From the NCBI GenBank assembly GCA_965248755.1, contig OZ252149.1, forward strand, positions 704,001 to 768,000: DNA of 64,000 nt. Reading direction: 5' to 3'. The translations under genes were made by a program, and so were the position numbers. This stretch comes from Candidatus Latescibacterota bacterium. GTDB lineage: Bacteria > Latescibacterota > CBDEFO01. Below are positions 3,171 to 55,856 of this stretch, in pieces (the stretch's first letter is position 1; every line of letters begins with the position of its first letter). Under the pieces are notes generated by a model. That model did not search any database. It was not told where the DNA came from and saw only the letters and a program-made list of their open reading frames with translations.

Positions 3171-3208
3171 CCGATTGAATCCCCGATTGAGTCTGTCAGG
3201 GATCGGGG
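3171..3208. repeat. 21-bp palindrome family, one copy nested inside another
   Basis: CCGATTGAAT[CCCCGATTGAGTCTGTCAGGG]ATCGGGG. Confidence 0.75.
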
Positions 3209-3220
3209 GCTGCTCTCTAC

Positions 3221-4285
3221 CTATTTAAATTCTCCTGTTAGAGAGAACCTGTGAACTTCTCCCAAGTCCGCAAACGAACTGAAGGCGTAATCGAATCTAT
3301 ACCTGTCTATCACAAAGCCTGCTCCGGCTGATATTCCCGCTCCTTCGCCTGTTTCCAGGCCGTTCGAGACAGAGCTGTATCCCGGACGTATCATAAAGTT
3401 CTGTGAAATTTCAAACTCGCCGCCTATGGAAAAGTAAAGGTCGTTATCGTTAGGTAGATTAGCGTCTACAACGATCATCAGTGGAAGATGTTCAGGCTTG
3501 TGGGTGATACCTATCTTCAAGTTTACGGGCAGACTATCCTTCAAATCTTCGGAAAATCCGCTCCTGACGAAGCCCAGATTTAGAATCGAAACCCCTAAAG
3601 TCGTCCTTTCGCGGGGCCTTATGAATATACCCAGATCCAGGGCGTAAGCGTCCGACGAAAACTCATCTATTCGTGAAAAGATAAACTTCAGATTACCTCC
3701 AACAGATACCTTGTCGGAGGTGAATCTTGAATAAGAAACGCGAGCCGCCAGATCACCCGCTCCGAAATCTCCTATCACGATCCCATTCTCATCCGTCTTG
3801 TCAAACGTCCCATACGATATATAACTTATCCCTATTCCGAACGTGGCCCTATTCTTGAGAGGAAATGCTAGGCCCACAAAGCCTGACTGAGTGTCCACCA
3901 GATAATTCGTAAAGGAGGCCGTAGCCATCTTGTTTTCTATTGTAGCCATAGCCCCGGGATTCCACACTATAGAGTTTATGTCCTCAGCCACAGCCGCAAA
4001 GGCGCTTCCAAACGCCGCCGACCGCGCAGAGTTGTCTATCTTCAGAAAGTTGAATCCTGTGGTTCCGACCTTGTCGTTTACTTCCTGTGCCCAAACTCCC
4101 CTTACAAATAGCGCAGAGATGGACAGGGCTATGCCGAAAAGCAGTAGAAAGTAGGTAGTAGGCCCCGATAGATTCAATCGGGGGAGATAGGGCATTGCCT
4201 CCCATCCCTGTATGCTGTCTACTGTTTGCTGTCTACTTTCTTTTATGTTGTGCTTCAGAATCTCCACTAACCTCTTCATATCCAT
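3221..4285 (-). CDS. PorV/PorQ (UPF0164)-family outer-membrane beta-barrel protein
   Basis: GTTGFNFLKI..SARSAAFG.AFAAVA.D..SIVWNPG N-terminal motif, alternating beta-strand pattern, signal peptide ending VWA/Q; the N-region carries an in-frame repeat insertion. Confidence 0.85.
   Translation of the reverse strand: MDMKRLVEILKHNIKESRQQTVDSIQGWEAMPYLPRLNLSGPTTYFLLLFGIALSISALFVRGVWAQEVNDKVGTTGFNFLKIDNSARSAAFGSAFAAVAEDINSIVWNPGAMATIENKMATASFTNYLVDTQSGFVGLAFPLKNRATFGIGISYISYGTFDKTDENGIVIGDFGAGDLAARVSYSRFTSDKVSVGGNLKFIFSRIDEFSSDAYALDLGIFIRPRERTTLGVSILNLGFVRSGFSEDLKDSLPVNLKIGITHKPEHLPLMIVVDANLPNDNDLYFSIGGEFEISQNFMIRPGYSSVSNGLETGEGAGISAGAGFVIDRYRFDYAFSSFADLGEVHRFSLTGEFK
4163..4183. repeat. 21-bp palindrome family, in-frame inside the PorV-like gene
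   Basis: Exact reverse complement of CCCCGATTGAATCTATCGGGG; encodes PRLNLSG. Confidence 0.9.
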
Positions 4286-4322
4286 AGGGATCTCCTCTGT
4301 TCAGGAACACATAGCTACCAGT

Positions 4323-5774
4323 TCATTCTTCTAACTTCTGCTTCAAAAACCGATTCACAAGCTGAGGGTCAGCTTTTCCCTTTGTCTCCCTCATTACCTG
4401 TCCAATGAAGAACGCTAGGAGCTTGGTCTGGCCTTCCCGGTATCGCTGAACCTCATTATCGTTCGCAGCGATTACGTTATCTATAATTCGCCCTATTTGG
4501 GAATCATCCGTAATCTGTGTTAAACCTTTCCGTTTCACAATCTCCTCAGGCCCTTTTCCACTCTCCGCCATTTCCTCGAACACAGCCTTTGCGATCTTTA
4601 AATTTATAGTCCCGACCTCCACCATTTTGATCAGTTCAGATAGACGCTCGGGCTTTACGTTAAATTCATCCGCCTTTATCTTCCTCTCGTTCAAGACCTT
4701 CAGGACATCTCCCATAACCCAATTGCTCGTCTTTTTTGGATCAGCTCCGGTTTTTACCACAAACTCATAATAGTCCCCCAACTCCGGCGTAGACGTTAAA
4801 ACCTCTGCATCGTAGTCTCTTATGCCATACTGGCCTGTGAATCGGTCCATTCTCTCTAAGGGAAGTTCGGGGATTTCTTCTCTTATCTGGTCGACCCACT
4901 CCTTACTTACTTCTACAGGCATCAAATCGGGCTCTGGGAAATATCTGTAATCCTCCGAAATTTCCTTGCTCCTCATAGGGACGGTAACGCCCCTTTGGGC
5001 ATCCCACAACAGAGTCTGGTGCATCACCTTATCGTTCTGCCTGAGTATTTCGGTCTGCCTCAGTGTCTCGGCCTCTAAAGCCCTCTGCAGATTCCTGAAC
5101 GAATTCATGTTCTTGATTTCAGTCTTCGTGCCCAGTTCGGACGATCCCTTGGGACGCAGTGAGATATTGGTATCTATCCTTATATTGCCCTCCTCCATAT
5201 TGCAGTCAGATATATCCAGATACTCAAGTACCTGCTTTAGTCTCGTAAGATAGACGTAAGCCTCCTGTGGAAAAGCCATATCTGGATAGCTCACAATCTC
5301 GATTAAGGGAACACCGCATCGGTTCACGTCAAAAAAGGAAGAGCCCTCCGACACATACTCCTCATCGTGTACTAATTTCCCCGCGTCCTCCTCCATGTGT
5401 ATTCTAACCAACCTTATCACTTTGGACTTCCCGTTAATCTCAATATCTATGTGACCGCCAATCGCAAAGGGCATCTCGCTTTGAGACTGATACTGAGATA
5501 TCTGATAGTTTTTCGGAAGATCCGGATAAAAGTAGCTTTTCCTGAGGAACCTGCTCCTCGGCTGGATCTGGCAGCCTAAAGCTACAGCTAACTTCAGAGC
5601 GCACTCCACAACTTTCCTGTTCAAAACCGGCAGTACCCCCGGCATGCCCAGACACACGGGACAGCCATGAGAGTTGGGATCAGCGCCGAACGTTGTGCTG
5701 CAGCCGCAGAATATCTTGCTCTCAGTAGAAAGCTGAACATGTACCTCTAAGCCTATATTTGCCTCATACTCCAT
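4323..5774 (-). CDS. gatB: Asp-tRNA(Asn)/Glu-tRNA(Gln) amidotransferase subunit B
   Basis: IGLEVHVQL, YFYPDLPKNYQISQ, HMEEDAGK, DYRYFPEPDL, C-terminal Yqey-like domain. Confidence 0.98.
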   Translation of the reverse strand: MEYEANIGLEVHVQLSTESKIFCGCSTTFGADPNSHGCPVCLGMPGVLPVLNRKVVECALKLAVALGCQIQPRSRFLRKSYFYPDLPKNYQISQYQSQSEMPFAIGGHIDIEINGKSKVIRLVRIHMEEDAGKLVHDEEYVSEGSSFFDVNRCGVPLIEIVSYPDMAFPQEAYVYLTRLKQVLEYLDISDCNMEEGNIRIDTNISLRPKGSSELGTKTEIKNMNSFRNLQRALEAETLRQTEILRQNDKVMHQTLLWDAQRGVTVPMRSKEISEDYRYFPEPDLMPVEVSKEWVDQIREEIPELPLERMDRFTGQYGIRDYDAEVLTSTPELGDYYEFVVKTGADPKKTSNWVMGDVLKVLNERKIKADEFNVKPERLSELIKMVEVGTINLKIAKAVFEEMAESGKGPEEIVKRKGLTQITDDSQIGRIIDNVIAANDNEVQRYREGQTKLLAFFIGQVMRETKGKADPQLVNRFLKQKLEE

Positions 5775-6003
5775 AGTATCTGCTCCATCTTCTGTAATCC
5801 CCCCCGCCGCCGAAGGGGAGCGCTATCACTTCATCAGACGTTTCAATCCTTAAAGTCGTTCCCTTTTAGAGTCATCCCTCTTCCTCACCTTACTGTGCTT
5901 TACGGCCACGTCCACAACACCGTTGCATCTTTTGTCAGGGATCCACGATTACTTCATCTCTGAACAGCAGATCACATTTTATTGATTTCCCTGATTCTAG
6001 GAG

Positions 6004-6045
6004 CGTATGCTCCTTTAACTCTGAAACGTATGCTCCTTTAACTCT
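6004..6045. repeat. 19-bp direct repeat CGTATGCTCCTTTAACTCT x2 (4-bp spacer) upstream of gatB
   Basis: Exact copies at 6004-6022 and 6027-6045. Confidence 0.9.
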
Positions 6046-6232
6046 ATCTTATCATTATGAGGAAATAATATAAGCCAAAACGTGCTGAAGTCAAGGATGT
6101 TTAGAAATTTTTTGTTCTCCGATTCGGAACGGTTGTATTTTTCAAGCTCGTCTTAGCGAATTATTAGAATTCCCTTGTGGATTGTTTCAGGACATGACAA
6201 CTTCAAAGAATGTTTCCTCCTTGCGACACTTA

Positions 6233-6340
6233 GTCATTGCGAGTCCCTGATTGACTCTATCGGGGGGGGGGCGGGGGGAAGCCCAGGATCTTTAGCCCAG
6301 AGCTAGGGGAAGGGTCTGCTACGGGTCAGATTAGCAATCT
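6233..6340. repeat. GTCATTGCGAG...GCAATCT element containing a 21-bp palindrome (6245-6265)
   Basis: Terminal motifs plus CCCTGATTGACTCTATCGGGG. Confidence 0.7.
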
Positions 6341-6546
6341 GAATATCAGGCGACCGTAAGGTTCCAGATAAGCAGCGTCATTCTCCTTCAACCATATCTC
6401 ATTTGCAATACCTAGTCCAGATCAACTTATCCTCCCCAATCAGTGAAGATTCTTCATCTTTTCATTCTGATAGTCCACGAAGAACTGGTATTTCAGTACG
6501 AAGGGCAGCTTATTTCACCATAAACCTCAAAAATACATCTATAGGG

Positions 6547-6575
6547 TTGACACGCAAAGCACTATAGCTTATATT
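6547..6575 (+). promoter_or_regulatory. sigma70-type promoter for the nuoBCID operon
   Basis: TTGACA-17 bp-TATATT about 110 bp upstream of nuoB; AGGAG RBS follows. Confidence 0.6.
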
Positions 6576-6686
6576 ACTAATGTGAAATGTAAGGAGTCAA
6601 TTCGCCTGCCGATATGAAGGCAAAACCATTGACCTATACTCAACGCTCCGATAATACTACAGATACTTGTCAGGAGGAGAACATAG

Positions 6687-7232
6687 ATGCCCCAAGAGGA
6701 GATAATAACGGAGGGCAGGTACGGAAACAACATTATCATAACCTCCGTGGATAAGATATTTAACTGGGCAAGGGAATCATCCCTGTGGCCTATGACGTTC
6801 GGACTTGCCTGCTGCGCCATCGAGATGATGGCCACGGGGGCCTCAAGATACGACCTTGACCGCTTCGGGGCCGGCGTCTTCAGACCTAGCCCCAGACAGT
6901 CCGATCTCATGATCGTAGCCGGAACAGTAACCTTGAAGATGGCAACCAGGATAAAGCGGCTTTACGAGCAGATGCCCGATCCTAAATACGTCATCTCGAT
7001 GGGGAGCTGTGCCACCTGCGGAGGTCCCTACTGGAACTTCGGCTACCATGTCCTAAAGGGTGTAGATCAGGTTATCCCCGTAGATGTCTACGTCCCGGGA
7101 TGTCCTCCCAGACCTGAAGCACTTATGGAAGGACTTATGAAGCTTCAGGAGAAGATCAAAGATGAGTCCCTTTTGGCGGATAAGATCAATAAGCTGACCG
7201 GGAGTGCAAGTGCTGAGGAGGAGGCTGCATGA
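6687..7232 (+). CDS. nuoB: NADH-quinone oxidoreductase subunit B
   Basis: [37 protein letters not shown]. Confidence 0.97.
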
Positions 7233-7807
7233 ACGCCGAGGAGATCCACAATAAACTTAAAGAGAAGTTCGGCGATTCTATCTTGGAATTTAACCCCCAA
7301 GCAGTCCAGCTATACGTGAAACTCTCTCCCAAATCTGTGCTCGACGTAGCCCGCTTTATGAAAGACGACGAGGAACTTGCCTTCGATTGTCTGATGTGCT
7401 TAAGTAGTGTTGACTACCCGGAAAGCATCGAAGTCGTCTATCACTTCTACTCCAACGTAAAGGGACATAAGTGCGTGCTGAAAGTCGAAGTCCCAAGAGA
7501 AAATGGCTCCGTCCCATCGGTGGAATCCGTATGGAGAACGGCTGACTGGCACGAAAGAGAAGCCTACGACCTTGTCGGCGTGGTCTTTGAGGACCATCCC
7601 GATCTCAGAAGGATACTCCTCCCCGAAGATTGGGAGGGATACCCCTTAAGAAAGGACTATCAAGTGCAGGAGTTTTACAGAGGTATGAGAGTTCCCTACG
7701 ACGAAGATCTGGATCCAAACAGAGGGACCTTCATAGAGCCGATGTTTCGTAAAGAAACTGCTCAAAAAGAGACGGAGTCCGAAAAAGAGGAGGAAAGCGA
7801 GTCGTGA
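7229..7807 (+). CDS. nuoC: NADH-quinone oxidoreductase subunit C
   Basis: [39 protein letters not shown]; 4-bp overlap with nuoB. Confidence 0.95.
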
Positions 7808-8538
7808 GAGGATATTTTTCCGACATATTCTCAGGGGTGTGGACTGTCCTGGTCGGTATGAGACTTACGTTCAGACACCTTTTTACCAGGGCCGTCACAC
7901 TCCAATATCCGGATGAAAAGTGGGAACTGCCACCAGGGGCAAGAGGCCAGCTCTTCAACGACATAGACGACTGCATAGGCTGTGACAAGTGCGCCAGGAT
8001 CTGCCCTGTGGACTGCATCTATATAGAGACAGTCAAAGTTGGCCCCGGTGAAGACCTGAGTGAGACCACTACGGGGCATAAAAAGAGACTGCACGTTGTG
8101 CGCTTTGATATAGACATGTCCAAGTGCTGCTACTGCGCCCTCTGCGTCTATCCCTGTCCCACAGAATGCCTCGTCATGACGCCAGAATATGAGAGCTCCG
8201 TCTATGACAGGGACGATTTCATCTATCGCTACGCCACATACACCCCTGAAGAGGTAGAAAAGATCAAAGAAGAAGGGGCTAAGAGGGATGTTGAAATGGC
8301 CGCAAAAAAAGCGGCGGCGGCCAAAGCCAAGGCAGAAAAAGCCAAAGCCGAGGGCGGTGGAGAGGAGAAGCCTGCCAGAGTCAAAGCATCGGCTACCAAA
8401 GCCGCAGGGAAAACCGAGGGTGGCGATGCTGAAGAAACACCCAAACCTGCGAGAGTAAAACCCAGAGCCGCAGAGGAGGCGATGGTGTCAGGTGAAGCTG
8501 CCCAGAAAGAACCCACATCCTCCGAAGATGAACAGTAG
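7804..8538 (+). CDS. nuoI: NADH-quinone oxidoreductase subunit I with a long Ala/Lys/Glu-rich C-terminal tail
   Basis: VTLQYPDEK, two 4Fe-4S motifs [12 protein letters not shown] and [12 protein letters not shown]; 4-bp overlap with nuoC. Confidence 0.93.
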
Positions 8539-8569
8539 ATAGGTTCGATTGCCATAAACGGAGAACATA

Positions 8570-9772
8570 ATGTTAAGGTCTCTGTTCCAGAAAAAAGAGG
8601 AAAAGCCCGAGCTTCCGGTTGGATTTGACAGTCCCCCTCCACACACCATTGGCGTTGAATTTGAAGGCGAGGACATGATCTTAAATATGGGTCCTCAGCA
8701 TCCGAGCACCCATGGGGTTTTGAGATTAGAGCTTGTGACCGACGGCGAAATCGTGGAGAAGGTGACGCCACATATAGGCTACCTCCACAGATGCTTCGAA
8801 AAACACTCGGAAAATATGACATATCCCGAAGTCATGCCCTATACGGACAGGATGGACTACATTGCTTCAATGAACCAGAACTTCGCATATGCACTGACAG
8901 TAGAAAGGCTCATGGACCTTCAGGTCCCGGAGAGAGTCGAATATATAAGGGTCATAGTAGCCGAACTCAACAGGATCGCAAGCCACCTTGTCAGCGTCGG
9001 CACCTACGGACTCGATATAGGGGCGTTCACGCCCTTTCTGTGGGCGTTCAGGGATCGAGAAAAAATATTAGACCTTCTGGAATGGCTCAGCGGGGCAAGG
9101 ATGCTCTATAACTACATCTGGATCGGAGGTGTCGCAAGAGACCTTCCTGACGGCTTTCTCGATAAGACGGAAGAGTTTCTGGATTACTTCGAGCCCAAGA
9201 TTGATGAGCTTAACGGCCTTTTGTCCTTCAACAAGATATTCATCGCAAGGACAGCCGAGGTCGGCATCCTCCCTCCCGAAGTAGCGATAAGCTACGGGGT
9301 CACGGGGCCCAACCTCAGGGGTTCAGGTGTCAGATGGGACCTCAGATTAGACGATCCTTACTCTATCTACGACAGATTTGAATTCGACATCCCCATCGGA
9401 ACCGACCAACACGGACCTGTAGGCTCCTGCTGGAACAGATACATGGTCAGGATATGGGAGATGAAGGAGTCCGTTAAGATCATACACCAAGCCCTGGACC
9501 ATGGCATCCCCGAAGGCGATGTTCACGAAGCCATACCCAAAAGGATCAGACCTCCCGAAGGCGACATATACGTCCGCACAGAGACGCCAAGAGGAGAATT
9601 AGGCTTCTATTTAGTCAGCGACGGATCCGACACACCCTACAGGCTCAAGGCAAGATCTCCCTGCTTTACGGCTATAAGCGTCCTGAATGAAATCGCCCGC
9701 GGCGGGATGGTAGCAGATCTGGTGGCTATCGTCGGAAGCTTGGACGTAGTCATGGGAGAAATAGACAGATAG
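8570..9772 (+). CDS. nuoD: NADH-quinone oxidoreductase subunit D
   Basis: NMGPQHPSTHGVLRL, GYLHR, ELNRIASH, C-terminal D.VMGEIDR; no NiFe CxxC motifs. Confidence 0.97.
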   Translation: MLRSLFQKKEEKPELPVGFDSPPPHTIGVEFEGEDMILNMGPQHPSTHGVLRLELVTDGEIVEKVTPHIGYLHRCFEKHSENMTYPEVMPYTDRMDYIASMNQNFAYALTVERLMDLQVPERVEYIRVIVAELNRIASHLVSVGTYGLDIGAFTPFLWAFRDREKILDLLEWLSGARMLYNYIWIGGVARDLPDGFLDKTEEFLDYFEPKIDELNGLLSFNKIFIARTAEVGILPPEVAISYGVTGPNLRGSGVRWDLRLDDPYSIYDRFEFDIPIGTDQHGPVGSCWNRYMVRIWEMKESVKIIHQALDHGIPEGDVHEAIPKRIRPPEGDIYVRTETPRGELGFYLVSDGSDTPYRLKARSPCFTAISVLNEIARGGMVADLVAIVGSLDVVMGEIDR

Positions 9773-9827
9773 AAGATGTGCAAAAGGTCTGTTCTAAGCA
9801 GATTACTCATCTTAAACGCCTTTCTAC

Positions 9828-9880
9828 ATAGGGCTCCTGAATCCCCGGATGACAAGTCCAGACAGGAGCCCTATTATTTT
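9828..9880 (+). terminator. probable intrinsic terminator after nuoD
   Basis: 12-bp stem ATAGGGCTCCTG/CAGGAGCCCTAT followed by TATTTT; the loop is unusually long (23 nt). Confidence 0.55.
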
Positions 9881-9899
9881 GGTAAGTGTTGGTCAGCAG

Positions 9900-10260
9900 G
9901 AAAGACCAGACGGGTATTAGTACGCAGGTAGATGGACGGGTGGCGGAGGTTTCAGTCTCTGTGCACTGAGGGAAGGGCTTTTTGTCAGAGTTAAAGACGC
10001 GGGACTGCTGATGATCAGTTCTGAGTACACCGATGAGCTTCTGGTAGCTGTAGTGGCAACCTGGAGGATTTGAGGCTGAACAATGCTGAAGAAAAGATTA
10101 CGAAATCCTTCCTTGAAGCCATAGTTAAGTGATTTTCCGATGGTAAATCCCTGACCATATACTGTTTTAAGCGGGCAACGGGTCTGAAGATGCCAGAGGA
10201 GGTCAAGGTCAAGCGGATGCCGAAGGAGTTACAAATCCCAAGATATCTTTACACTTTACA
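9900..10260 (+). pseudogene. type III R-M Mod (DNA methyltransferase) C-terminal remnant
   Basis: Broken frames give GGGGFS, ..ISSEYTDELLVAVVA, IYCFKRATGLKMPEEVKVKRMPKEL, resembling Mod C-termini; a Res-like remnant lies downstream. Confidence 0.45.
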
Positions 10261-10275
10261 AAATGGAGGTCCAGA

Positions 10276-10452
10276 ATGAAAACCTTCACCCCTTATGTTG
10301 AGTGGGACCGTGAGACCAGACTCTATGGGGGTATAGTTCCGGGCATCCCAGGCGCACATACTCAAGAGGCCACCTTGGATGAACTCCGTAAGAATCTCAA
10401 GGAAGTGCTGGAATTGTGCGCAGAGGAGAGCAAGGAGGTTCAAGATGTCTAA
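10276..10452 (+). CDS. hicB: HicB-family antitoxin (58 aa)
   Basis: MKTFTPYVEWDRETRLYGGIVPGIPGAHTQEATLDELRKNLKEVLELC; GGAGG RBS; below the ORF-track cutoff. Confidence 0.75.
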   Translation: MKTFTPYVEWDRETRLYGGIVPGIPGAHTQEATLDELRKNLKEVLELCAEESKEVQDV

Positions 10453-10666
10453 GAAGTTTACTGCTGTGATCACGAAGGAGGAAAACTGGTATGTGGCCCA
10501 TTGTGTGGAATTGGGAGTAGTCAGCCAGGGAAAGACGATAGAGGAGGCACAAGCGAACCTTAAGGAGGCTGTGGAACTTTACCTGGAGAGTTTTGGGACA
10601 GAAGACTTACCTGAGAGCTTGGGGGAGGTAGTTCTTTATCCTCTTGAGGTAGTAGTCAGTGGCTAA
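10445..10666 (+). CDS. hicB: HicB-family antitoxin
   Basis: MSKKFTAVITKEENWYVAHCVELGVVSQGKTIEEAQANLKEAVELYLE; AGGAGG RBS. Confidence 0.88.
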   Translation: MSKKFTAVITKEENWYVAHCVELGVVSQGKTIEEAQANLKEAVELYLESFGTEDLPESLGEVVLYPLEVVVSG

Positions 10667-10884
10667 ACTCCCTGTACTTTCGGGTGATGAGTTGATCAAG
10701 GCTCGTCAGGAAGACAGGTTTCCAAGTCGTGCGTAAAAGAGGGAGCCATGTTACCCTTCGGAAGGGAAGCTACAACACGGTCGTTCCCCTTCATCACGAG
10801 TTGGCAAAAGGTACACTTCTTGGAATCCTTAAACAGTGTGGTCTCAGCCGAGACGACCTTGAAGAATTGCTGGAGAAGATATGA
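10659..10884 (+). pseudogene. hicA: HicA-family toxin, frameshifted by one extra base
   Basis: MAKLPVLSGDELIKA / RKTGFQVVRKRGSHVTLRKG..TVVPLHHELAKGTLLGILKQCGLS; one extra base near 10706 breaks the frame. Confidence 0.8.
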
Positions 10885-11070
10885 ACATCATAAAGGACTT
10901 TGCGCGGGATATGAGCCTCTGTAAACCTCAACGAGAGGGTCTGGAGGTCTTTGATCGAGTTGTGACATCCTCTCCGATTGGTCGGGGTATCACAAAAAGC
11001 AGAACCTTGGTGCTATGATGGTCGGTGAACCTTCAGTCTCCTATGCCGTTGCCCCAGGAGAAAGAGGAAT
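10881..11070 (+). pseudogene. type III R-M Res (helicase/endonuclease) N-terminal remnant
   Basis: MNIIKDFARDMSLCKPQREGLEVFD (cf. LSLRxPQxESLE) and PSVSYAVAPGERG (cf. degenerate PSxxFALATGVGKT); ATGA overlap with the hicA stop. Confidence 0.5.
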
Positions 11071-11165
11071 AAAGAAAAAACAGGAAGAATGGGCAGAGAC
11101 AACAAAAATGACGCAAGCAAATATTGCAGCGAGTACAAGCATAGCAATGAAACTCGAAAAGGATA

Positions 11166-12578
11166 ATGGGGAAAGATCAAATGGCAGATGAATTCGATTT
11201 AGCCATCATCGGCAGCGGACCGGGAGGATACACCGCGGCTATCAGGGCGTCGCAATTGGGAATGAATACAGCCCTGATCGAAAGAGACAGGCTCGGAGGC
11301 GTATGCCTAAACTGGGGATGCATCCCCAGCAAAGCCCTCCTGAGGAGCGCGGAGATCTACCAGCTCATCCGTAGAGCAGACGAATTCGGGATAAAACTGG
11401 ACAATCTCGGCTTCGATTTTGAAAAGATTATCAAAAGGAGCAGAAGGACAGCCCAGAGACTCTCAAAAGGCGTAGAATATCTGATGAGTAAAAACAAGAT
11501 CACCGTCTATAAAGGGAGCGGAAGGTTTTCCTCAAAGGGCAATATAGACGTCATAGACGACGATGGGAAGGTTGTTGAATCCCTTACCTATAAAAATGCA
11601 ACAATATCCACAGGTGCAAGACCGAGATCTCTTCCCAATGTGGCGATAGACAGGGCGAAGATCATCACAAGCAGCGAGGCTATGAACCTGGAGACTTTCC
11701 CCGAATCCATGGTAATCATCGGAGGAGGAGCCATAGGAGTGGAGTTTGCCTACTTCTACAACGCCTTCGGATGCGAGGTCACACTGATGGAGATGATGCC
11801 CAGCATCCTCCCCCTGGAAGATAGTGAAATTACAGACGTACTCACCAAATCGCTTTCCAAGAGCAGAATAGAGATATTGACAGATTGCAGAGTGGAAAGT
11901 GTAGATACGACCTCAGAAGATGTTAAGGTGATCGCATCTGCAAAGGGGGATAAGATAGAACGCAGCGGAAATATCGTTCTGATGGCTGTAGGAGTTCAGG
12001 GAAATATAGAGAACATAGGACTGGAAGAATTAGGCATAGAGACAGAAAGAGGATTTATAAAAGTGGATGAAACCCTCCAGACCACCGTCTACGGAATATA
12101 CGCCATAGGGGACGTAGTCGGGCCCCCCTTATTAGCTCACGTCGCATCCTCAGAGGGCGTTTCAGTGGTAGAGACGACGGCAGGTATCGAAAGAGATCGT
12201 ATTGACTATGGCAACATCCCCTCCTGCACATACTGTCAACCCCAGGTAGCAAGCACAGGGCTTACAGAAGAGCAGGCAAAAAAGGAAGGTTACGAGGTCA
12301 AAATAGGAAGATTCCCGTTTCAAGCCAGTGGGAAGTCGATCGCCATCGGAGAAAACGAAGGACTGGTCAAGCTCATCTTCGACGCCGAGTACGGACAGAT
12401 ATTGGGTGGCCACATCGTAGGTGCAGAAGCCACAGAGATGATAGCCGAGCTCTGCACAGCTAAAACCCTTGAATCCACATACCATGAGCTTTTAAAGACC
12501 CCTCATGCTCACCCCACCCTATCAGAAGCCGTAATGGAGGCCGCAGGACAGGCTTACGGTGAGGCGATCAATATTTAG
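11166..12578 (+). CDS. lpdA: dihydrolipoyl dehydrogenase
   Basis: IGSGPGGY, GGVCLNWGCIPSK, IGGGAIG.E, HAHPTLSE; start may be ATG 11181. Confidence 0.96.
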   Translation: MGKDQMADEFDLAIIGSGPGGYTAAIRASQLGMNTALIERDRLGGVCLNWGCIPSKALLRSAEIYQLIRRADEFGIKLDNLGFDFEKIIKRSRRTAQRLSKGVEYLMSKNKITVYKGSGRFSSKGNIDVIDDDGKVVESLTYKNATISTGARPRSLPNVAIDRAKIITSSEAMNLETFPESMVIIGGGAIGVEFAYFYNAFGCEVTLMEMMPSILPLEDSEITDVLTKSLSKSRIEILTDCRVESVDTTSEDVKVIASAKGDKIERSGNIVLMAVGVQGNIENIGLEELGIETERGFIKVDETLQTTVYGIYAIGDVVGPPLLAHVASSEGVSVVETTAGIERDRIDYGNIPSCTYCQPQVASTGLTEEQAKKEGYEVKIGRFPFQASGKSIAIGENEGLVKLIFDAEYGQILGGHIVGAEATEMIAELCTAKTLESTYHELLKTPHAHPTLSEAVMEAAGQAYGEAINI

Positions 12579-12700
12579 CAGAGACAAGAGCGTGCGCTTT
12601 ATCTCGTACTAACAATTTATTTACCTGAGTTATCTTTCGATCTGGTGCAAACTTAGGAAATTCTCTCCCATAATCGACCCGAAAATTCTGAAATGGGGGG

Positions 12701-12729
12701 TTGACATTTCGTGTGATATGAATTATGTT
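12701..12729 (+). promoter_or_regulatory. sigma70-type promoter candidate upstream of dnaE
   Basis: TTGACA-17 bp-TATGTT. Confidence 0.5.
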
Positions 12730-12920
12730 TACTACCACAAAAAGATCCCCTTTCCCCTTTGAATTAAACCTAATCTCCCCGATAAGTTAAACAAGTACAG
12801 GTTCTTATGAATGTAATGTCTTCCCGTACCAGGGAGATGTCATCTTTCCTGAAACTCCCCTTTTGAGCTATACTCTTTCACTCTAACACCTTTATCTTTG
12901 GAGCGATTCGGAGGAGCCTC

Positions 12921-15900
12921 ATGCCATCAGCCGGTTTTGTTCATCTGCACAACCATACCATGTACAGCCTTCTGGACGGTGCCGTCAAGATCGAGGATAT
13001 GGCTCAGCGAGCATCAGACTTGGGAATGCCCGCCATCGCCATCACCGATCACGGAAACATGTTCGGAGCCGTGGAGTTCTACAAGAAAGTTAAGGAAAAA
13101 GGCATAAAACCCATAATCGGCTGCGAAGTCTACGTCGCAATCGAGGGGATGAATAGCAGAAGAGAGGTTATGGGCATAAAGGACGGAGCCAATCACCTCG
13201 TCCTCTTAGCCAAAAACAACAAGGGCTACAAAAACCTTATGAAGATAGTCTCAGCAGCCTATCTGGAAGGTTTCTACTACCACCCGAGAGTCGATAAAGA
13301 GATCCTGAAAGAATACTCCGAAGGACTCATATGTCTTTCGGCCTGTCTCAAAGGTGAACTCCCCTACCTTATCAGCATGAATCGACCGGAAAAAGCTAAA
13401 GAAGCCGCCTCGAAGTACCTGGAAATATTTGGTGAAGGGAACTACTATATAGAACTCCAAAGACACGGGATAAAGGAACAGGGGGAAGCCAATCCCGTCC
13501 TGATAGAAATAAGCAAGGAACTCGGCATACCGCTTGTGGCTACCAACGACGCCCACTATCTCCAGCAGGACCACACAAGCATGCACGACGTTTTGATCTG
13601 CATTCAGACCGGAAAGACCATAGAAGACGAAAAGCGGATGAAGTTCATAACTGACCAGGTCTATCTCAAATCCCCCGAAGAAATGCACAACCTATTCTCA
13701 GACGTCCCCGAAGCTGTGGAAAACACAGTGCAGATAGCCGAGAAGTGCGACGTAGAGATAGAACTTGGTAGACTCCACCTCCCGGCCTATCCCCTCCCCC
13801 AAGGATACGATTTTCCTGAGAAGTATCTGGAAGACCTTGCGCGCGAGGGGCTCCAAAAACGCTACGACGAGATCATGCCCGAAGTAGAAGAACGCTTCAA
13901 CTTTGAGATGGATATCATCAAAAAGACGGACTATGCGGGATACTTTCTCATCGTAGCCGACTACGTAAGATACGCACTGGAAAATGGAATAAGAGTAGGA
14001 TACGGCAGAGGCTCAGGTGCTGCAAGCATTGTAGCTTATGCCCTGGGTATAACGGGAATAGACCCGATCAAATACGACCTGATATTCGAAAGGTTTCTGA
14101 ACCTTGAGCGCATCGAGATGCCCGACTTCGACATAGATTTTTCGGACAAAGATAGGATCATCTCTTACGTGACAGGCAAGTATGGTTCCGACAGCGTATG
14201 TCAGGTCATCACGTTCGGGACGATGGCGGCAAAGGGCGTCGTCAGAGACGTAGGCAGAGCCATGGGAATACCTTACTCAGAGGTGGACAGGATTGCCAAA
14301 CTGATACCCAATGAGTTGGGAATAACTCTTGAGGGAGCCTTAAAGTCAGTCCCCGAACTCAAAGCGATGGAAAAGTCCGACGGTCCACAAGCTGAGCTCA
14401 TACACTACGCCAAATTCTTAGAGGGCTTAGCCAGACATGCGTCCGTACATGCGGCTGCAGTAATCATAGTCCCCGGTAAACTCACAGACTACGTGCCGCT
14501 TTACAAATCCCCAAAAGGAGACAAGATTACAACGCAGTACGACATGGACATCTGCAAGGATCTGGGTCTTTTAAAGATGGATTTTCTGGGTTTGAAAGAG
14601 CTTTCCCTACAAGACAACGTCGTTAAAATGGTAAGCGAGTACACCCCCGACTTCAATATCGAAAAGATACCTCTCGACGACAAGAAGACCTATGAACTGT
14701 TCGGAAGGGGAGACACCTGGGGCGTATTCCAGTTTGAAAGTCAGGGCATGAGAGAGAGTTTAAGGAAGTTGAAACCCGACAACATCGAAGACCTGATAGC
14801 TATGAATGCCCTCTACAGACCCGGTCCTATGGCTTACATACCCGATTACATAGCCCGCAAGCACGGGGTGAGTATAGAATACGATCACCCTCTATTAGAA
14901 CCCGTACTGAAGGATACCTATGGGGTCATAGTCTATCAGGAACAGGTGCTTAGGATAGCAAGAGACTTAGCTGGCTTTACCTTGGGAGAGGCGGACATAT
15001 TAAGAGCTGCTATGAGCAAAAAGAAGATGGAAATTATGGAGAAGCAGAAGGGAAAATTTTTTGAGGGATGTGAAAAAAAAGGCGTCGAGCCCAAGATCGC
15101 CGAAAAGATTTACAACGATATTGCCGTCTTCTCAGGCTATGCTTTCAACAGAGCTCATGCCGCCTGCTACGCTGTGATGGCTTACCAGAACGGCTACCTA
15201 AAAGCCAACTATCCTAAAGAATTTATGGCTGGCAGCCTTACCAACGACATGTCCGACAGCGACAAGATGGCATTGATGATCGAAGAATGCAAAAGGATTG
15301 GTATCGAACTCTTGCCTCCGGACATCAACGAAAGCCAGGCGGACTTTACAGTCACAGAAGAAGGTGTAAGATTTGGCCTTGCCGCCCTCAAGAACGTCGG
15401 AAGAGGAGCAGCAGACGCTATCAGCCAGGCCATAAAGAGAGTCGGAAAGTTCGAGACAATATTCGACTTCTGTGAGACAGTCGATCTGAGAACTGTGAAC
15501 AGAAGGGCCATAGAAAGTCTTATATGTGCAGGAGCTACAGACTCTATAGAGGGACACCGAGCACAACTCATACAAACTCTGAATACCGCTATCGAATCTG
15601 CCCAATTTGCGCAGGACCAAAGGGTGAAGGGCCAAATTTCACTCTTTGACGATAATCAGATAACGTCTGGTCGCACAGGTAAAAGGACCCTTCCTCCAGT
15701 CGAGGAGTGGACTGAGACACAAATGCTCGAAAAGGAAAAGGAGGTCTTGGGATTTTTCATGTCAGGTCATCCGCTCAAAAAATACGAAGATCAGCTAAAC
15801 GCCCTCATTGCCCATCCTTCGGACACCCTCCCTCAGCTTTCAAAGGGGGCCCCAGTCAAAATAGGAGGCATCATAACAGATGTCCGCCGAAACACAGATA

Positions 15901-16340
15901 AGAAAGGCGCACAGATGGCGTTCATCACACTGGAAGATCTCAAAGGCGCTGTGGACGTAGTCGCCTTCTCGGAGACATACGGAAAATACAGCTCTTTGAT
16001 TGAACCGGACAAATTAGTCATCATAAAAGGCAGGATGTCCGCCAACGGAAATAAGAGTGTCCAGGCAGAAGAGTTTGTCGTTCTGGATGAAGCCCTAAAG
16101 GGCAACGTCAAAGCCGTTAACCTTTCTATCCCCTTTGAACTTGTTGAAAGGGGTAAATTGATGGAGCTGAGGAAACTCTGCGAAATGTACAGCGGAGAAT
16201 GTGATATTCTAATCCATCTGGAAGACGAAGGCAACTCTAAATCTGTAATAAGGTCCAGAACCGTGACCGTCTCCCCCTCCAGCGATCTTATATCCGCTCT
16301 CAAATCCAGATTGGGAGAGGACAGGGTATGGATGAAATAA
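12921..16340 (+). CDS. dnaE: DNA polymerase III alpha subunit
   Basis: PHP domain FVHLHNHTMYSLLDGA, GRGSGA, MPDFDID, KMDFLGL, OB-fold C-terminus. Confidence 0.98.
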   Translation: MPSAGFVHLHNHTMYSLLDGAVKIEDMAQRASDLGMPAIAITDHGNMFGAVEFYKKVKEKGIKPIIGCEVYVAIEGMNSRREVMGIKDGANHLVLLAKNNKGYKNLMKIVSAAYLEGFYYHPRVDKEILKEYSEGLICLSACLKGELPYLISMNRPEKAKEAASKYLEIFGEGNYYIELQRHGIKEQGEANPVLIEISKELGIPLVATNDAHYLQQDHTSMHDVLICIQTGKTIEDEKRMKFITDQVYLKSPEEMHNLFSDVPEAVENTVQIAEKCDVEIELGRLHLPAYPLPQGYDFPEKYLEDLAREGLQKRYDEIMPEVEERFNFEMDIIKKTDYAGYFLIVADYVRYALENGIRVGYGRGSGAASIVAYALGITGIDPIKYDLIFERFLNLERIEMPDFDIDFSDKDRIISYVTGKYGSDSVCQVITFGTMAAKGVVRDVGRAMGIPYSEVDRIAKLIPNELGITLEGALKSVPELKAMEKSDGPQAELIHYAKFLEGLARHASVHAAAVIIVPGKLTDYVPLYKSPKGDKITTQYDMDICKDLGLLKMDFLGLKELSLQDNVVKMVSEYTPDFNIEKIPLDDKKTYELFGRGDTWGVFQFESQGMRESLRKLKPDNIEDLIAMNALYRPGPMAYIPDYIARKHGVSIEYDHPLLEPVLKDTYGVIVYQEQVLRIARDLAGFTLGEADILRAAMSKKKMEIMEKQKGKFFEGCEKKGVEPKIAEKIYNDIAVFSGYAFNRAHAACYAVMAYQNGYLKANYPKEFMAGSLTNDMSDSDKMALMIEECKRIGIELLPPDINESQADFTVTEEGVRFGLAALKNVGRGAADAISQAIKRVGKFETIFDFCETVDLRTVNRRAIESLICAGATDSIEGHRAQLIQTLNTAIESAQFAQDQRVKGQISLFDDNQITSGRTGKRTLPPVEEWTETQMLEKEKEVLGFFMSGHPLKKYEDQLNALIAHPSDTLPQLSKGAPVKIGGIITDVRRNTDKKGAQMAFITLEDLKGAVDVVAFSETYGKYSSLIEPDKLVIIKGRMSANGNKSVQAEEFVVLDEALKGNVKAVNLSIPFELVERGKLMELRKLCEMYSGECDILIHLEDEGNSKSVIRSRTVTVSPSSDLISALKSRLGEDRVWMK

Positions 16341-16352
16341 ATAGAGGGCAGC

Positions 16353-16373
16353 CCCCGATAGATTCAATCGGGG
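16353..16373. repeat. 21-bp palindrome family, between dnaE and dusB
   Basis: Exact reverse-complement copy. Confidence 0.9.
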
Positions 16374-16429
16374 GTGAGCAGGGACATCTCCTCTCTCTAC
16401 CAGCTATCTCAGTGAATGGGAGCTCCTCA

Positions 16430-17422
16430 ATGGTCAAAATAGGAAATTTGCAGATCCAAGAAAAGACCATCTTGGCGCCGATGTGCGGCATATCCGATTC
16501 CCCCTTTAGACGACTCTGTAAAGAGTTTGGAGCAGGACTGGTCTATACAGAGATGATAAGCGTAGATGGAATATTAAAAGGAAACGAAAAGACAAAGCGC
16601 TTGGCAAAATTCACCGAGTCCGAACACCCTATAGGAATACAGGTCGTCAGCAGCGATCCCAGACTCGCTGCAGAAGGAGCTAAGATCGCGGCGGACCTGG
16701 GTCCCGATCTGATAGATATCAACTTCGGATGCCCCGTCCCCAAGATCGTCAACCAGATGGCAGGAGCCGCCGCACTCAAGGACCCACCCTTGATGAGCAG
16801 AATCATAAAATCAGTATCCAGTGCTGTAGATGTTCCAGTCACAATAAAGACCAGGAGTGGGTGGTCACAAGACACAATAAACGCTCAAGAGATAGGGAGA
16901 ATTGCAGAAGAGTCCGGCGCCAGTGCAATAGCACTCCACGCCAGAACCAGGAAGATGAGATTCTCCGGAAGGGCTGACTGGAGCTTAATAAGACAGGTAA
17001 AAGATGCAGTATCCATCCCCGTCATAGGAAACGGGGATATTACGACTCCCGAAGGTGCCCTTGTGATGCTTCAGGAGACCGGGTGCGATTTAGTCATGAT
17101 CGGAAGGGGAGCTGTGGGGAACCCGTGGATATTCAAGAGGATGAAGGGCCTCCTGAAGACTGGCAAACTTACTCCCGAACCGACTCCTGCAGAGAGAATA
17201 GAAATGTGTATTAGACACCTGGATATGCTCATCGAGGAAAAGGGCGAATACGTGGCTGTAAGAGAGATGAGAAAACATATAGGCCCGTACACAAGGGGCA
17301 TGAAAAACGGTGCTATCTTTAGAGATAAGATTGTCAGAAAAGACGAACCGGATGAGATCAAAGGATTGCTGAGACAACTTGCTCAACTACAAGAGGAACT
17401 ACCGGTGACTTTACCCCTGTGA
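16430..17422 (+). CDS. dusB: tRNA-dihydrouridine synthase B
   Basis: LAPMCG, DINFGCPV.K, HARTR, IGNGDI, MIGRGA.GNPWIF; start set at ATG 16430 because the upstream extension contains a palindromic repeat. Confidence 0.92.
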   Translation: MVKIGNLQIQEKTILAPMCGISDSPFRRLCKEFGAGLVYTEMISVDGILKGNEKTKRLAKFTESEHPIGIQVVSSDPRLAAEGAKIAADLGPDLIDINFGCPVPKIVNQMAGAAALKDPPLMSRIIKSVSSAVDVPVTIKTRSGWSQDTINAQEIGRIAEESGASAIALHARTRKMRFSGRADWSLIRQVKDAVSIPVIGNGDITTPEGALVMLQETGCDLVMIGRGAVGNPWIFKRMKGLLKTGKLTPEPTPAERIEMCIRHLDMLIEEKGEYVAVREMRKHIGPYTRGMKNGAIFRDKIVRKDEPDEIKGLLRQLAQLQEELPVTLPL

Positions 17423-17465
17423 GGATTACAAAGCAGCAGGACAGACATTCACCTCCCCCAGTGCG

Positions 17466-18233: not shown

Positions 18234-18575
18234 GCACTTCGCCACGTTCAAATCTCAGATTCAAAAGATGAGACTAAACTACTTATCAAGACTTGGCACC
18301 TTAAATGAAACCAATCGAGCCTACCGCCTTCGGCACGTCTCGACATAGGCACTGCGCGGGCGGGGCTTCAGACCTGGCCCTTAGGTGCTGCCCCCTACGA
18401 TGCATGAGATGGCATTCCTCCGCCACTGGTGAGTGATGGTATTCCGTCATATTTTTTATAAAGGAGATAGACAGTAAAATAGTTGGACTATCCCCGCTGG
18501 TCTGCCCTGACAGTAGTCAGGCTATCTCCTGCCCTCCCTGTATGCTTTCTGCTGGAACAAAAGAAACCTAATAAT

Positions 18576-19772: not shown

Positions 19773-19965
19773 ACAGGGAGTAAGGGGAGGGCACTTCGTG
19801 CTCTGCTCTGCTGCCACCTCAGGTGGGCTTATGTCTTACCGTATCATATCAGGCGGAATGGCGACATATTGCTTACTGGGTTTCCACCTCACCATCCCTA
19901 CCATTTGCTACTGCACATCCATTAGTTCTACTGTCTGTTCTACATCATTTGCTCAAGGATCACCG

Positions 19966-20460: not shown

Positions 20461-20528
20461 ATTGTTCACTCCTTTCCTTGCCGCTATTCCGCCTATGTGT
20501 TCAGAGTTGCCGAACTGCCTTGTGCAAT

Positions 20529-45069: not shown

Positions 45070-45072
45070 CCC

Positions 45073-49222: not shown

Positions 49223-49375
49223 GAGATTGGTTCCGCTTCTCGCATCTCCTGACAGGGTCTGGGCAAGTGCCCCTCGCGATGACAATAAGCAAAAGCCAAG
49301 TAATATCATTGCGGGTCCCTTGCGACCGTCATTCCGATCCCCGATTGAATCTATCGGGGATAGCGAAGCAATCTC
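49223..49375. repeat. pair of GTCATTGC-family elements after lon; the second carries a 21-bp palindrome at 49339-49359
   Basis: GAGATTG...CTCGCGATGAC and ATCATTGCG...GCGAAGCAATCTC. Confidence 0.8.
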
Positions 49376-49704: not shown

Positions 49705-51330
49705 CCGACATTCCCCATATCACATTCATGAGGGATTATATTTCGATACATTCTTGTTTCTGAATTAATATTACCACTTTTACATTTTTCAACAAGTACT
49801 TTTTTCAATTAAAATAGTATTTTCCTCTGAATTATCACTTTCTTTGTGTTTAAATCCTCCAATTAGAGACACCTCTCCATCGACTCACAAAAAAATGTGG
49901 CAGTTTAAACAGAATAACATCGCAATCGTTCAATCCGGGATAATATTTCGGCAAATAACCTCTTGTCTATCCCAACCTCAGCCATTTGAAACGTAATATA
50001 TCCGCTGTGTCTGACAATCTTCGCTCCGATTTTGATAAATTTCACGAGGAGGCTGCGTAGTGACCAGTGTTTGATTTTCTTCGGAAGAACAAAACGTCGC
50101 AGGAAGTTGCCCAAGTTGTAAGCCAGAACAAACAGCCAGAGCCTCACCTGATTGGAGACGAAACGCTTGCATGAGAGTCGGGTCCAGTTCAGAGCATACT
50201 TGCCCTCCTTAATCCACTGCTCAGCTCTGCCACGGCCATTGTAGAAGTGTACCACGCCTTCTGGCTTGGCGCTCATGTTGGTCACGATAAATCCCACTCT
50301 TGGGAATAACTCCCCTTGGTGCCATTCAACCTTGGCGACCACTCGCCTCGATTGATCCCAACTGGCCGCTTTATATTGAAATTCATATAACGATACAATC
50401 GGTTTCCTCGGCGGTCGTCCAACTGGCCGAGTCAGCAGGTATCGTATCTTTTCATAGAGTATCTCATTTGCGGGAAGCCGAATGGCATACAAATAGCCGT
50501 TTCCCTCCAGATAATCATAAATCTCAGGCTTTGCGAATGCAGCATCGCCTCGAAAGTATTTCCTATTCTTCTTGCTCTCGTATCTCTTGACGATCGGTTC
50601 CAGAACTTCCTTCCAACGATCAGCACTGTGAACATTACCAGAGCGAAGTAGGACTCCTTCACAATCCCCGAACTGATTGAAGCAGAACACTGGATGAAAA
50701 CAGGTACATCCGAAATGACCGTTGTAAGCTGATCCTTCCTGCTGGCCATGTACCGGACTCTCCGAACTGTCCATGTCCAGAATGATTCGTTGATGCTGTG
50801 TTTTACTCATCGCTTTTTGAACCCACTTGCCATTGATATCTGACAAGTTTCTGAGATTGTCATGCTGAGTCAGTATATCAGTTTCAAAACGTCCTATCGT
50901 GTTGGAGCTGGCAGCTTGCCTGCCTTTGTCCTTCTTTCCGGTAATCGCTCGCATGACGGGATCAACGGATAATCGCTCGGCGTCATTTACATCTTCATAT
51001 CCTGCAAGACGGCTGTATATCGATTGACGCAGGAGAGTAGATATATCATGTTGGATATTACGGCCTGTGCGTTTATCGGTAAAAACCGCTGATACCGAAT
51101 CAAATAATCCCAGTGCGTAATCAAGGTCACGATACGCAAGAAGTCCACCGTTTGATGTCACCTTTGCACCATGAAATTCAAGCTTTATTCCTCCATCAAA
51201 ACCTACTTTGATTCTTTCACCCTCTGGATGATCAATATTTATCCGCCATTTATGAGTCTTATTTATTGTAATATAACATGTTCTGGCGACTTTGACAACC
51301 ATTTTTCGGGTCTAATATGGCGAATGGGGG
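49705..51330 (-). mobile_element. IS1380-family element, 1626 bp, with 5-bp target duplication AAGAA
   Basis: IRs CCGACATTCCCCATATC vs rc CCCCCATTCGCCATATT (13/17); AAGAA at 49700-49704 and 51331-51335. Confidence 0.92.
49905..51302 (-). CDS. IS1380-family DDE transposase
   Basis: F.G..VTS.GGLL, GYEDVND, LDMDSS, RGDAAF, FYNGRG.AEQWIKEGK, LAYNL; true start may be somewhat downstream. Confidence 0.93.
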   Translation of the reverse strand: MVVKVARTCYITINKTHKWRINIDHPEGERIKVGFDGGIKLEFHGAKVTSNGGLLAYRDLDYALGLFDSVSAVFTDKRTGRNIQHDISTLLRQSIYSRLAGYEDVNDAERLSVDPVMRAITGKKDKGRQAASSNTIGRFETDILTQHDNLRNLSDINGKWVQKAMSKTQHQRIILDMDSSESPVHGQQEGSAYNGHFGCTCFHPVFCFNQFGDCEGVLLRSGNVHSADRWKEVLEPIVKRYESKKNRKYFRGDAAFAKPEIYDYLEGNGYLYAIRLPANEILYEKIRYLLTRPVGRPPRKPIVSLYEFQYKAASWDQSRRVVAKVEWHQGELFPRVGFIVTNMSAKPEGVVHFYNGRGRAEQWIKEGKYALNWTRLSCKRFVSNQVRLWLFVLAYNLGNFLRRFVLPKKIKHWSLRSLLVKFIKIGAKIVRHSGYITFQMAEVGIDKRLFAEILSRIERLRCYSV

Positions 51331-53959: not shown

Positions 53960-54382
53960 TCAGGAAAAAGCGGACTTCAGATCAGACAACAGGGCCTTAT
54001 ATATAGGATTACAAAATTCCGCAACACCGCCGCCACTACTTTCCCAACTCGATGTCCAAAGGACAAAGGTGGCCTCTTCGTCCGTCACGGGAAATACTCT
54101 GATTTCTCCGATATAGCCAACTACATTGTCTTTGGACACGGCCTCTGGCCCATCATCAATGCTATATCGTACTACCCGAGCCTCTTCCTCAAGGGCAAGC
54201 AAGGTCTCATGAATAACACCGTTCAAGACTCTTTTCGCGCCTATCTGCGTGCCAGGCGCATCGCCCACGATGTCAAGCTTCTCTACAACATTGGGAAAAA
54301 CTGACATATTGTGAAAATCTCGAAGTGCTGCCCATACCTTTTCTACAGGAGCATTGACGACAGCAGAGTTGTAGCAACCCAT
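53960..54382 (-). CDS. SRPBCC/polyketide-cyclase-like protein
   Basis: S.VVNAPVEKVWAALRDF, G..R.L, ETLL.L, YSI.DGP. Confidence 0.85.
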   Translation of the reverse strand: MGCYNSAVVNAPVEKVWAALRDFHNMSVFPNVVEKLDIVGDAPGTQIGAKRVLNGVIHETLLALEEEARVVRYSIDDGPEAVSKDNVVGYIGEIRVFPVTDEEATFVLWTSSWESSGGGVAEFCNPIYKALLSDLKSAFS

Positions 54383-54526
54383 AGTAAAATCTCCTCTCTA
54401 TTTCCAGGAAGCAACTTGTCTTAAAATAGATAGATGGATGGGAAACCTCGCGTTCAGATCTCATTATCGTAGCTGTTGGAATATAATTGATCCTGTGCTG
54501 GTTGTCAACAGCAAAATAAACTGGAG

Positions 54527-55709
54527 AGAAGAGTAAAGACACATGGTATCCACCCTCACGGGATAATTTTGCCTATATTTAGGTGAGGACTGAAAAAAGG
54601 AGGGTAGATACCATGGAGAATGCTATCACTTATAGTGATGTTCTTGTTCTTAATCGTAATCCTGTTGATCTTCGTATCAAGATGGTTCAGACTGCTCAAC
54701 AATACGGTGTCTCGTATGCTGCAAGGGCTTTTAATACAACACGCAAGAGTATAAGAAAATGGCTGAAACGTTATCTTGAAGACCGATCCTTGAAGAGTCT
54801 AGAAAATCATACGAAAGCACCCATAAACCCTCACTGTTTGTTACCGGAGGAGATCAGAAAGATCATCGTAAAGTTCCGACAGACCCATCGTTCTTTGGGA
54901 TATCCCTATCTATTGGGCTTTCTGCAAAAACAAAATGTTCCAACTGATCAAATCCCCTCCAAGCCGACTGCCTATACTATCTGGAAAAAACACAATCTCA
55001 TAAAGAAACGCAGGCGAAAATGGAGGAGAAAGAAACTTGTGTGCCAGTGGAAAAAGAAACTACGCCCCTTTGAATATATCCAGATCGATGTCAAACATCT
55101 GTGCGATATCCCCAACTACCTGAAACAACACTACAAAACAGGTGCCCAACTCCCTATGTTTGAGTATACTGCCGGAGATATCAAGACAGGCGGTCTCTTC
55201 GTAAGCCTGGCAGACGAACAGAGCCTGATCAACTCCTGCATCTTGGCCGAAGCATTACTCCAACACCTGGAAGACCACAAGGTCTATCCACGAAAGATCC
55301 AAACCGACAACGGCAGCCAATTCGTCAATACATAAGGATGCCCTTAAAAAGACCCTCTTTACCGACTTCATCCAACAAAGAGGCGTAGAACATAAACGCA
55401 TCCCACCAGGGGATACTACATACCAATCCGATGTAGAACGCGCCCACGGCCTAATCGAATATGAATTCTACGACACCATCAAGACTACCAACCGTGCCAA
55501 CCTCTGCCGGAAACTCCAGACTTATCAATGGTTGTTCAATACCCAAAGACATAATAGCTACAAAGAATCCAAAACCCCTCTGCACATAGCAACCGAACAT
55601 ACACCCACAGAAAACCTCGACCCTCAACTTTTTAACTTCCCAATCTTGATTCTTGACTCTCTTCTCTCTATCTTTATCAAGGGTGGATACCATGTGCCTT
55701 TACCCGACA
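54527..55709 (+). mobile_element. IS481-like element, copy 1 (1183 bp), transposase frame broken
   Basis: About 30-bp IRs (..GTAAAG(A/G)CACATGGTATCCACCCT); HTH plus IQIDVK, IQTDNGSQF and, after a frameshift, DVERAH. Confidence 0.85.
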
Positions 55710-55835
55710 AATTCTTACTGATCGCGAAAAGCTAACAAGGAACCCATATCCTCCGAGTGCTCCGATCCATGGCTGACCTCACACCTGACGAGGAAGCACT
55801 GTGCTACCTGCTGGAATAATCTTCTTGACTATCAT

Positions 55836-55856
55836 CCCCGATTGAATCTATCGGGG
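55836..55856. repeat. 21-bp palindrome family
   Basis: Exact CCCCGATTGAATCTATCGGGG. Confidence 0.9.

Follow-up and report, generated by a model that had tools for sequence, protein, structure and literature searches.

The stretch analysed here, called the window, comprises 64,000 nucleotides (nt) of the genome of a Candidatus Latescibacterota bacterium (contig OZ252149.1, positions 704,001 to 768,000 of the forward strand), and it carries eight copies of a short hairpin that is real and mobile. Mobility, which had been proposed in a first-pass annotation of this DNA, was borne out by empty alleles found both within the same genome (G000; 4.54 Mb in one contig, 98% complete) and in a congener (G001; identity of around 94-96% over the window). 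The comparison of the two took in 2.8 Mb of the approximately 4.6 Mb of G001. All eight copies were recovered where the annotation had placed them, in both orientations and with four exact (21-nt cores starting at 4163 and 16353 on the minus strand and at 49339 and 55836 on the plus strand), and all are shared with G001. The window is without any Rfam match.

The eight copies lie in varied surroundings (window coordinates of the 23-nt unit defined below). On the minus strand, one exact copy (4162-4184) falls in an open reading frame (ORF, 3221-4285) for a PorV-like protein and another (16352-16374) between dnaE and dus. On the plus strand, copies at 6244-6266 and 20868-20890 are within repeats resembling repetitive extragenic palindromes (REPs), that at 20528-20550 is upstream of a globin-like gene, and two exact copies of the T..A type are located in a REP-like repeat downstream of lon (49338-49360) and in intergenic DNA (55835-55857); each of these seven is common to G001. 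The eighth (3180-3202, plus strand, three mismatches) sits within an older copy, at the loop site, where it replaces the four loop bases. The nesting noticed at first reading is genuine, as the outer copy (3169-3208, plus strand) is recognizable by its arms at 3169-3179 and 3203-3208, and G001 has a third copy nested inside the 3180-3202 copy (+19 nt). A REP-like repeat of the window also holds an empty target (59019-59021, plus strand), whose three bases are replaced by a 23-nt copy in G001 (+20). Among the listed matches of contigs from four metagenome runs to window positions 2100-21500, no further filled or empty sites were found. The earlier statement that one copy is in frame in a gene applies at best to the copy at 4163, which, given translation from an early ATG, would belong to the signal-peptide-like N-terminus of ORF 3221-4285. 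The ORFs around 16353 and 20529 probably start downstream of these two copies, judging by where the Pfam domains begin. The window also contains, at 49705-51330, a copy of the abundant type of an insertion sequence (IS), IS1380, which has a 5-bp duplication and whose site is empty in G001.

A genome-wide count, as suggested in the first-pass annotation, gave 105 exact copies and 530 copies with at most three mismatches in G000, compared with none in a genome simulated by a fifth-order Markov model; 100 shuffles yielded no match against the eight copies of the window. G001 is similarly rich, with 491 strand-matches at two mismatches versus 462 in G000. The hairpin was absent from all 39 other genomes of the phylum and from the viral contigs searched. 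The matches listed in a scan of named genomes belonged mostly to one Ca. Latescibacterota metagenome-assembled genome (MAG), together with several Deltaproteobacteria MAGs, a Thermodesulfobacteriota MAG and one contig labelled Nanoarchaeia, five of the genomes listed having 8-54 strand-matches each. The exact sequence was also present in metagenome loci spanning 36 to 68% GC. An identical hairpin sequence thus occurs in unrelated bacteria.

The hairpin had been described as a 21-nt unit with a 7-bp stem, a description that needs correction: the unit is 23 nt, consisting of a pyrimidine, the 21 nt and a purine, and the stem is 8 bp. A pyrimidine precedes the 21-mer in 498 of the 530 copies and a purine follows it in 496; the two end bases are Watson-Crick partners in 411 and covary (T..A in 250, C..G in 159), and they are paired likewise in 96 of 100 distinct copies from other loci. 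Pairing ends there, the next pair outward being matched in only 27%. Each strand folds into the 8-bp stem (z around -3), and at the pair 5-17 double (compensated) changes number 19, compared with 12 and 9 single changes. Unpaired bases make the unit an imperfect palindrome. Compared with position 8 (T in 102 of 118 variants) and position 15, position 7 varies more (T in 72 of 118), suggesting that the upper stem may hold unpaired bases rather than form a plain 7-nt loop. The flanks, once thought unrelated between sites, have a purine at -2 in 437 of the 530 copies and a pyrimidine at +2 in 387, and many copies lie inside other repeats. With loosely defined motifs, a repeat was found at most 45 nt from about 70% of copies compared with 27% of random non-ORF positions. 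No conserved tetranucleotide, GTAG foot, CGTC tag or 3-bp tail was found in the flanks; the lack of a GTAG or CGTC foot agrees with the first-pass annotation, as does that of an enzyme of the RAYT type.

To resolve how copies are gained, 554 site pairs of G000 and G001 were compared in both directions. Poor flanks excluded 158 and ambiguity another 6, leaving 390 resolved pairs: 226 filled alike (shared sites being counted twice), 6 removed as duplicates and 158 that differed. Simple presence/absence events accounted for 61 of the differing pairs; the other 97 reflect minor decay, additional nesting or slippage by 12 nt within nested copies. Empty orthologous sites in a close relative, for which the annotation had advised a search, were thereby found, although for some pairs in multi-copy hosts the "empty" partner is a paralogue and not an orthologue.

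Two outcomes were observed. In 24 of the 61 simple events the 23-mer replaces exactly four target bases (+19), and in 9 a 4-base overlap is added (+27). The remainder replace five (9), three (8), two (3) or six (2) bases or have other overlaps (6); none replaces zero or one base, so that a clean +23 never occurs, and a model of independent end processing was rejected for lack of such events. Among 548 indels of 10-80 nt, tallied independently, the element-bearing ones peaked at +19 (29), +27 (10), +18 (9) and +20 (9). All 24 four-base swaps have paired ends, and in 15 of them one or both end bases are unlike those of the target. Exact 4-nt direct repeats flank the 23-mer at 20 places genome-wide, compared with 3.0 in shuffles (maximum 9). 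The extra four bases of the +27 class are sometimes those of the target and sometimes donor-like: one variant, which carries an invariant CCTG tail, has gone into three separate neighbouring sites, none of which it duplicated, and in unrelated organisms an identical tail precedes the same variants. The 27-nt subfamily with this tail, whose three sites lie in one paralogous cluster (G000:C1:2129267-2132134), is also present at loci L236, L247, L253, L268 and L312. Two other small repeats were noticed among the indels between G001 and G000, namely another small hairpin shared by two 18-nt insertions of G001 and a third tiny repeat shared by insertions of 22-24 nt.

The filled state is derived, because insertion truncates the transposase frame of an IS3-like element: 55 empty copies of this element keep a frame of 259-316 aa, and 15 filled copies stop at 124 aa. 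It is hardly credible that the hairpin is instead a transcription-factor operator, a terminator or an assembly artefact. A mostly intergenic near-palindrome would suit an operator or terminator, but the empty orthologous sites refute all three, and a sequence that is polymorphic, nested and able to break a transposase is not what either would be. T-tracts after the stem are rarer than at random (20 of 530 copies versus 41.6 expected), which speaks against termination, and an artefact would not be filled at orthologous sites of the independently assembled G001 or recur in unrelated organisms.

Only 121 of the 530 copies are inside ORFs of at least 150 aa, though such ORFs cover 80% of G000, and 47 are well inside them. 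The annotation had reasoned that a length divisible by three and stop-free frames let the hairpin be tolerated in genes. Four of the six frames of the 21-mer are indeed stop-free, but the commonest gain, +19, is out of frame, and none of the 24 such events is in a long ORF, compared with 5 of 9 for +27, 5 of 9 for +18 and 2 of 3 for +21. The argument thus holds just for the minor outcomes, ORFs keeping +18, +21 and +27 alone.

Target bias was evident. The 33 four-base events yield a symmetric R-TCGA-Y logo with the four-base core in the middle, and a central CG is present in 8 of 13 non-nested +19 targets (hand count; p around 6e-8). Eleven of the 24 four-base swaps are nested. Nesting is explained by the hairpin's own loop, which contains an RTCGAY-like site with one mismatch. 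Of 44 nested copies, 27 are four-base swaps; 26 of these swaps fall on that one site, 14 and 12 in the two orientations, and they include the nested copy of the window.

Given such clustering in repeats, it may be asked whether the hairpin is self-mobile at all, or owes its spread entirely to gene conversion between repeats and to transport as a passenger of IS elements and miniature inverted-repeat transposable elements (MITEs). Passive spread does occur, for 15 copies lie in the IS3-like element and 13 in an IS1380 MITE (around 28 of the 530), and the proximity of most copies to repeat motifs and the recurrence of nested variants point the same way. As a full account, though, passive spread is very improbable and is largely refuted by the many events in single-copy DNA without flank homology, in-frame insertions in long ORFs included, and by the fixed 4-base register and TCGA bias at single-copy sites.

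A sibling hairpin with the same arms, a 17-nt core and a 3-nt loop has 23 copies in G000. Its ends are paired in the same way and it is swapped for a 4-base TCGA, a gain of 15 nt; composites of +34 and +38 were seen as well. As this sibling and the nested composites obey the same rule, the arms, and not the loop, appear to be the cis signal. A model of 15+4 nt (a sticky 19-mer) was rejected, one-sided cores numbering only 4 of 256.

The arms also bring the resident IS1380 family into question, whose transposase could have made or could move the hairpin, the latter being an extreme deletion derivative of the IS ends. G000 has an intact IS1380 element of 1647 bp (G000:C1:2921195-2922841) with a 444-aa transposase, and around 25 MITEs of 226-276 bp belong to it, with 4-bp CTAA/TTAG duplications; REP-like repeats carried by the MITE have received the hairpin at two sites. 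Both the element and its 229-bp MITE make 4-bp duplications, and the terminal 13-mers of IS1380 and the hairpin arm agree at 10-11 of 13 positions, in the terminal register of the inner 19-mer, compared with only 4-7 of 13 for other IS ends. A truncated MITE of 130 bp (G000:C1:4501773-4501902), flanked by a 4-bp duplication, has its right end exactly at a hairpin arm, so on one occasion the transposase has taken an arm for an end. Even so, this origin is unlikely. IS1380 targets CTAA/TTAG (35 of 40) and not RTCGAY, and loss of four bases, the main outcome here, is not a signature of DDE transposases. The two outer bases on each side, which are donor-derived and conserved, lie beyond the register of the terminal inverted repeat (TIR) and are left unexplained by IS1380. 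Neither PF13701 nor the exact TIR was found in any of five fragmented, deltaproteobacteria-like genomes that bear the hairpin, and the arm match was itself found post hoc.

The reading favoured here, with a probability of roughly 0.6, is that a trans-acting nicking strand-transferase belonging to none of the families tested moves the 23-nt element. The palindromic element lands in either orientation at R-TCGA-Y-like sites, mostly replacing the four central target bases (+19) and less often keeping a 4-base overlap on both sides (+27). Because the compensated pairs are accompanied by a conserved, asymmetric unpaired T/T position, we infer that the folded strand is recognized, and the enzyme, acting in trans, would likely bind the hairpin in single-stranded form and cut the target with a four-base stagger. 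The symmetry of the two outcomes around one four-base core, together with the absence of +23, points to a single concerted staggered cut whose products depend on which ends are joined, and the extra four bases of the +27 class would derive from the target in some cases and from the donor in others. Such an enzyme may use a covalent intermediate, with HUH-like or topoisomerase-like chemistry, and may lie outside the families tested in this study or be supplied transiently.

Several observations weigh against this reading. The 4-base register is not strict, as 26 of the 61 events are off the two main classes by 1-2 nt either way or at odd offsets. Gene conversion can look like repeated insertion where the host is multi-copy, and 11 of the 24 four-base swaps are in copies of the element itself, with several more in other hosts of this kind; all 14 "opposite" nested copies begin with C and most share one variant, so that they look like conversion or spread of one composite. 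Elements moved as single strands by HUH enzymes often show strand bias, and here there is no bias of replication strand or transcription direction: copies are oriented 171 versus 158 relative to transcription, with no consistent bias relative to local skew.

The enzyme search is the other weak side of the reading. The nuclease or transposase gene flanked by copies, for which the annotation had advised looking, was not found. Neither G000 nor G001 has a Y1/RAYT protein (PF01797), and the RAYTs of genomes G041-G045 are at least 1.3 kb from the listed hairpin copies. Searches for TnpB (PF01385), Cas1 (PF01867) and GxxExxY (PF13366) returned nothing, as did those for IS110 (PF01548) and DUF559 (PF04480) in G000. 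The single GIY-YIG match (PF01541) in G000 is a 608-aa UvrC-like frame; a small GIY-YIG gene occurs only in G001, where it is flanked by other repeats. This 107-aa gene (L355:937-1260) has its own, different inverted repeats and lies inside a duplicated stretch. PF05635 is represented by one broken copy, and none of the 15 matches to PF00589 in G000 is tied to the hairpin. PF04986 scored 0 of 12, with its control likewise silent. No recurrent enzyme gene was found beside copies in G000 and G001, where ORFs with copies on both sides are housekeeping genes, nor among the neighbours in 134 other loci, likewise housekeeping. No autonomous element bounded by hairpin arms was found among 40 isolated half-sites or among the large insertions listed between G000 and G001.

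That no dedicated enzyme was found in a 98% complete genome would be expected if a host type II topoisomerase (gyrase or topoisomerase IV) captured and ligated the hairpin without any transposase. Type II topoisomerases cut with a 4-nt stagger, which the 4-base register fits. Gyrase is described as targeting E. coli REPs (PMC3733652). A topoisomerase origin is nevertheless improbable, since all bacteria have these enzymes and the hairpin is patchy even within its phylum (0 of the 39 other genomes), and a sequence-specific TCGA bias would be unexpected.

An equally improbable account invokes an RNA template and target-primed reverse transcription of the hairpin, with the second-strand cut site determining deletion or duplication. 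Retroelements of the R2 type give both outcomes, and an RNA intermediate was reportedly proposed for the small dispersed repeats (SDRs) of cyanobacteria. Two reverse transcriptase genes (PF00078) are present in G000, at G000:C1:3731484-3733370 and 3677787-3679310. In our reading, one is retron-like, is disrupted by an IS3-like element and has a 301-aa ORF next to it, and the other, of 507 aa, is Abi-like; both thus resemble defence types, and no hairpin copy is present in their loci. G-T and C-A mispairs sum to 120 and 110, giving no G-T excess on either strand, and the even orientation relative to transcription is again unfavourable.

Among known systems, the SDRs of the Nostocaceae (Elhai et al. 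2008, Genome Res 18:1484) are the closest kind. SDRs are around 20-27 nt long (21-27 nt), dispersed and structured with compensatory changes, and they insert into other repeats, mini-transposons and themselves; we know of no enzyme for their mobility. The hairpin is alike in its 23 nt, its many dispersed copies (530), its conserved structure with compensatory changes, its insertion into other short repeats, a MITE and itself, and its recent mobility, shown by empty sites in a relative. Published accounts give SDRs a size of "some 20 bp" (PMC2884548), confine them to the Nostocaceae (PMC5861425) and describe precise insertion of SDR5 between bases 3 and 4 of HIP1 (PMC4390886). In contrast to SDR5, none of the 61 events was precise (+23), four bases being replaced (24) or duplicated (9); the host phylum also differs, and the hairpin is set beside SDRs by description, not by sequence.

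Compared with GTAG REPs and REPINs (PMC3116915; PMC8266576; PMC3733652), the hairpin is likewise a short imperfect palindrome with unpaired bases, high in copy number and intergenic, but it lacks a conserved foot and a RAYT in either genome, occurs as single units and not doublets, and uses REPs as its targets. With CGTC REPs and the Rickettsia palindromic elements (PMC3733652), it has in common that no dedicated transposase is known and that in-frame gene copies occur; it differs in having no CGTC tag or tail, in its smaller size and in the 4-base swap at a motif. IS1380-family MITEs are similar in the 4-base register and perhaps in their ends, given the post hoc match of the arms to resident terminal repeats (10-11 of 13), whereas the hairpin is too short for two ends, has another target motif and mainly causes deletion. 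In the literature searched, which left out Elhai 2008 and most subscription papers, neither the hairpin sequence nor its description nor a 4-base swap was found. The present analysis contributes the two-outcome 4-nt rule and the target motif, and the hairpin is likely among the smallest mobile DNA elements.

A broader view, possible but tentative, is that such hairpins are minimal single-stranded transposons that cross phyla, with the 8-bp stem as the sole cis signal and any loop cargo carried, and that an enzyme from outside the known transposase families, or a moonlighting host core enzyme, exchanges them for four bases of RTCGAY-like sites. How repeats of 20-27 nt such as SDRs move has been a standing question since 2008, and the hairpin offers a testable signature for it: a 23-nt donor, a target motif, a two-outcome 4-base register, tolerance of loop cargo and identical copies across phyla. 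With this signature, assays of cleavage and transfer can be designed, as can a search for co-occurring genes. In the genomes studied, the hairpin explains both recurring protein insertions of 6-9 residues and the frameshift inactivation of IS transposases.

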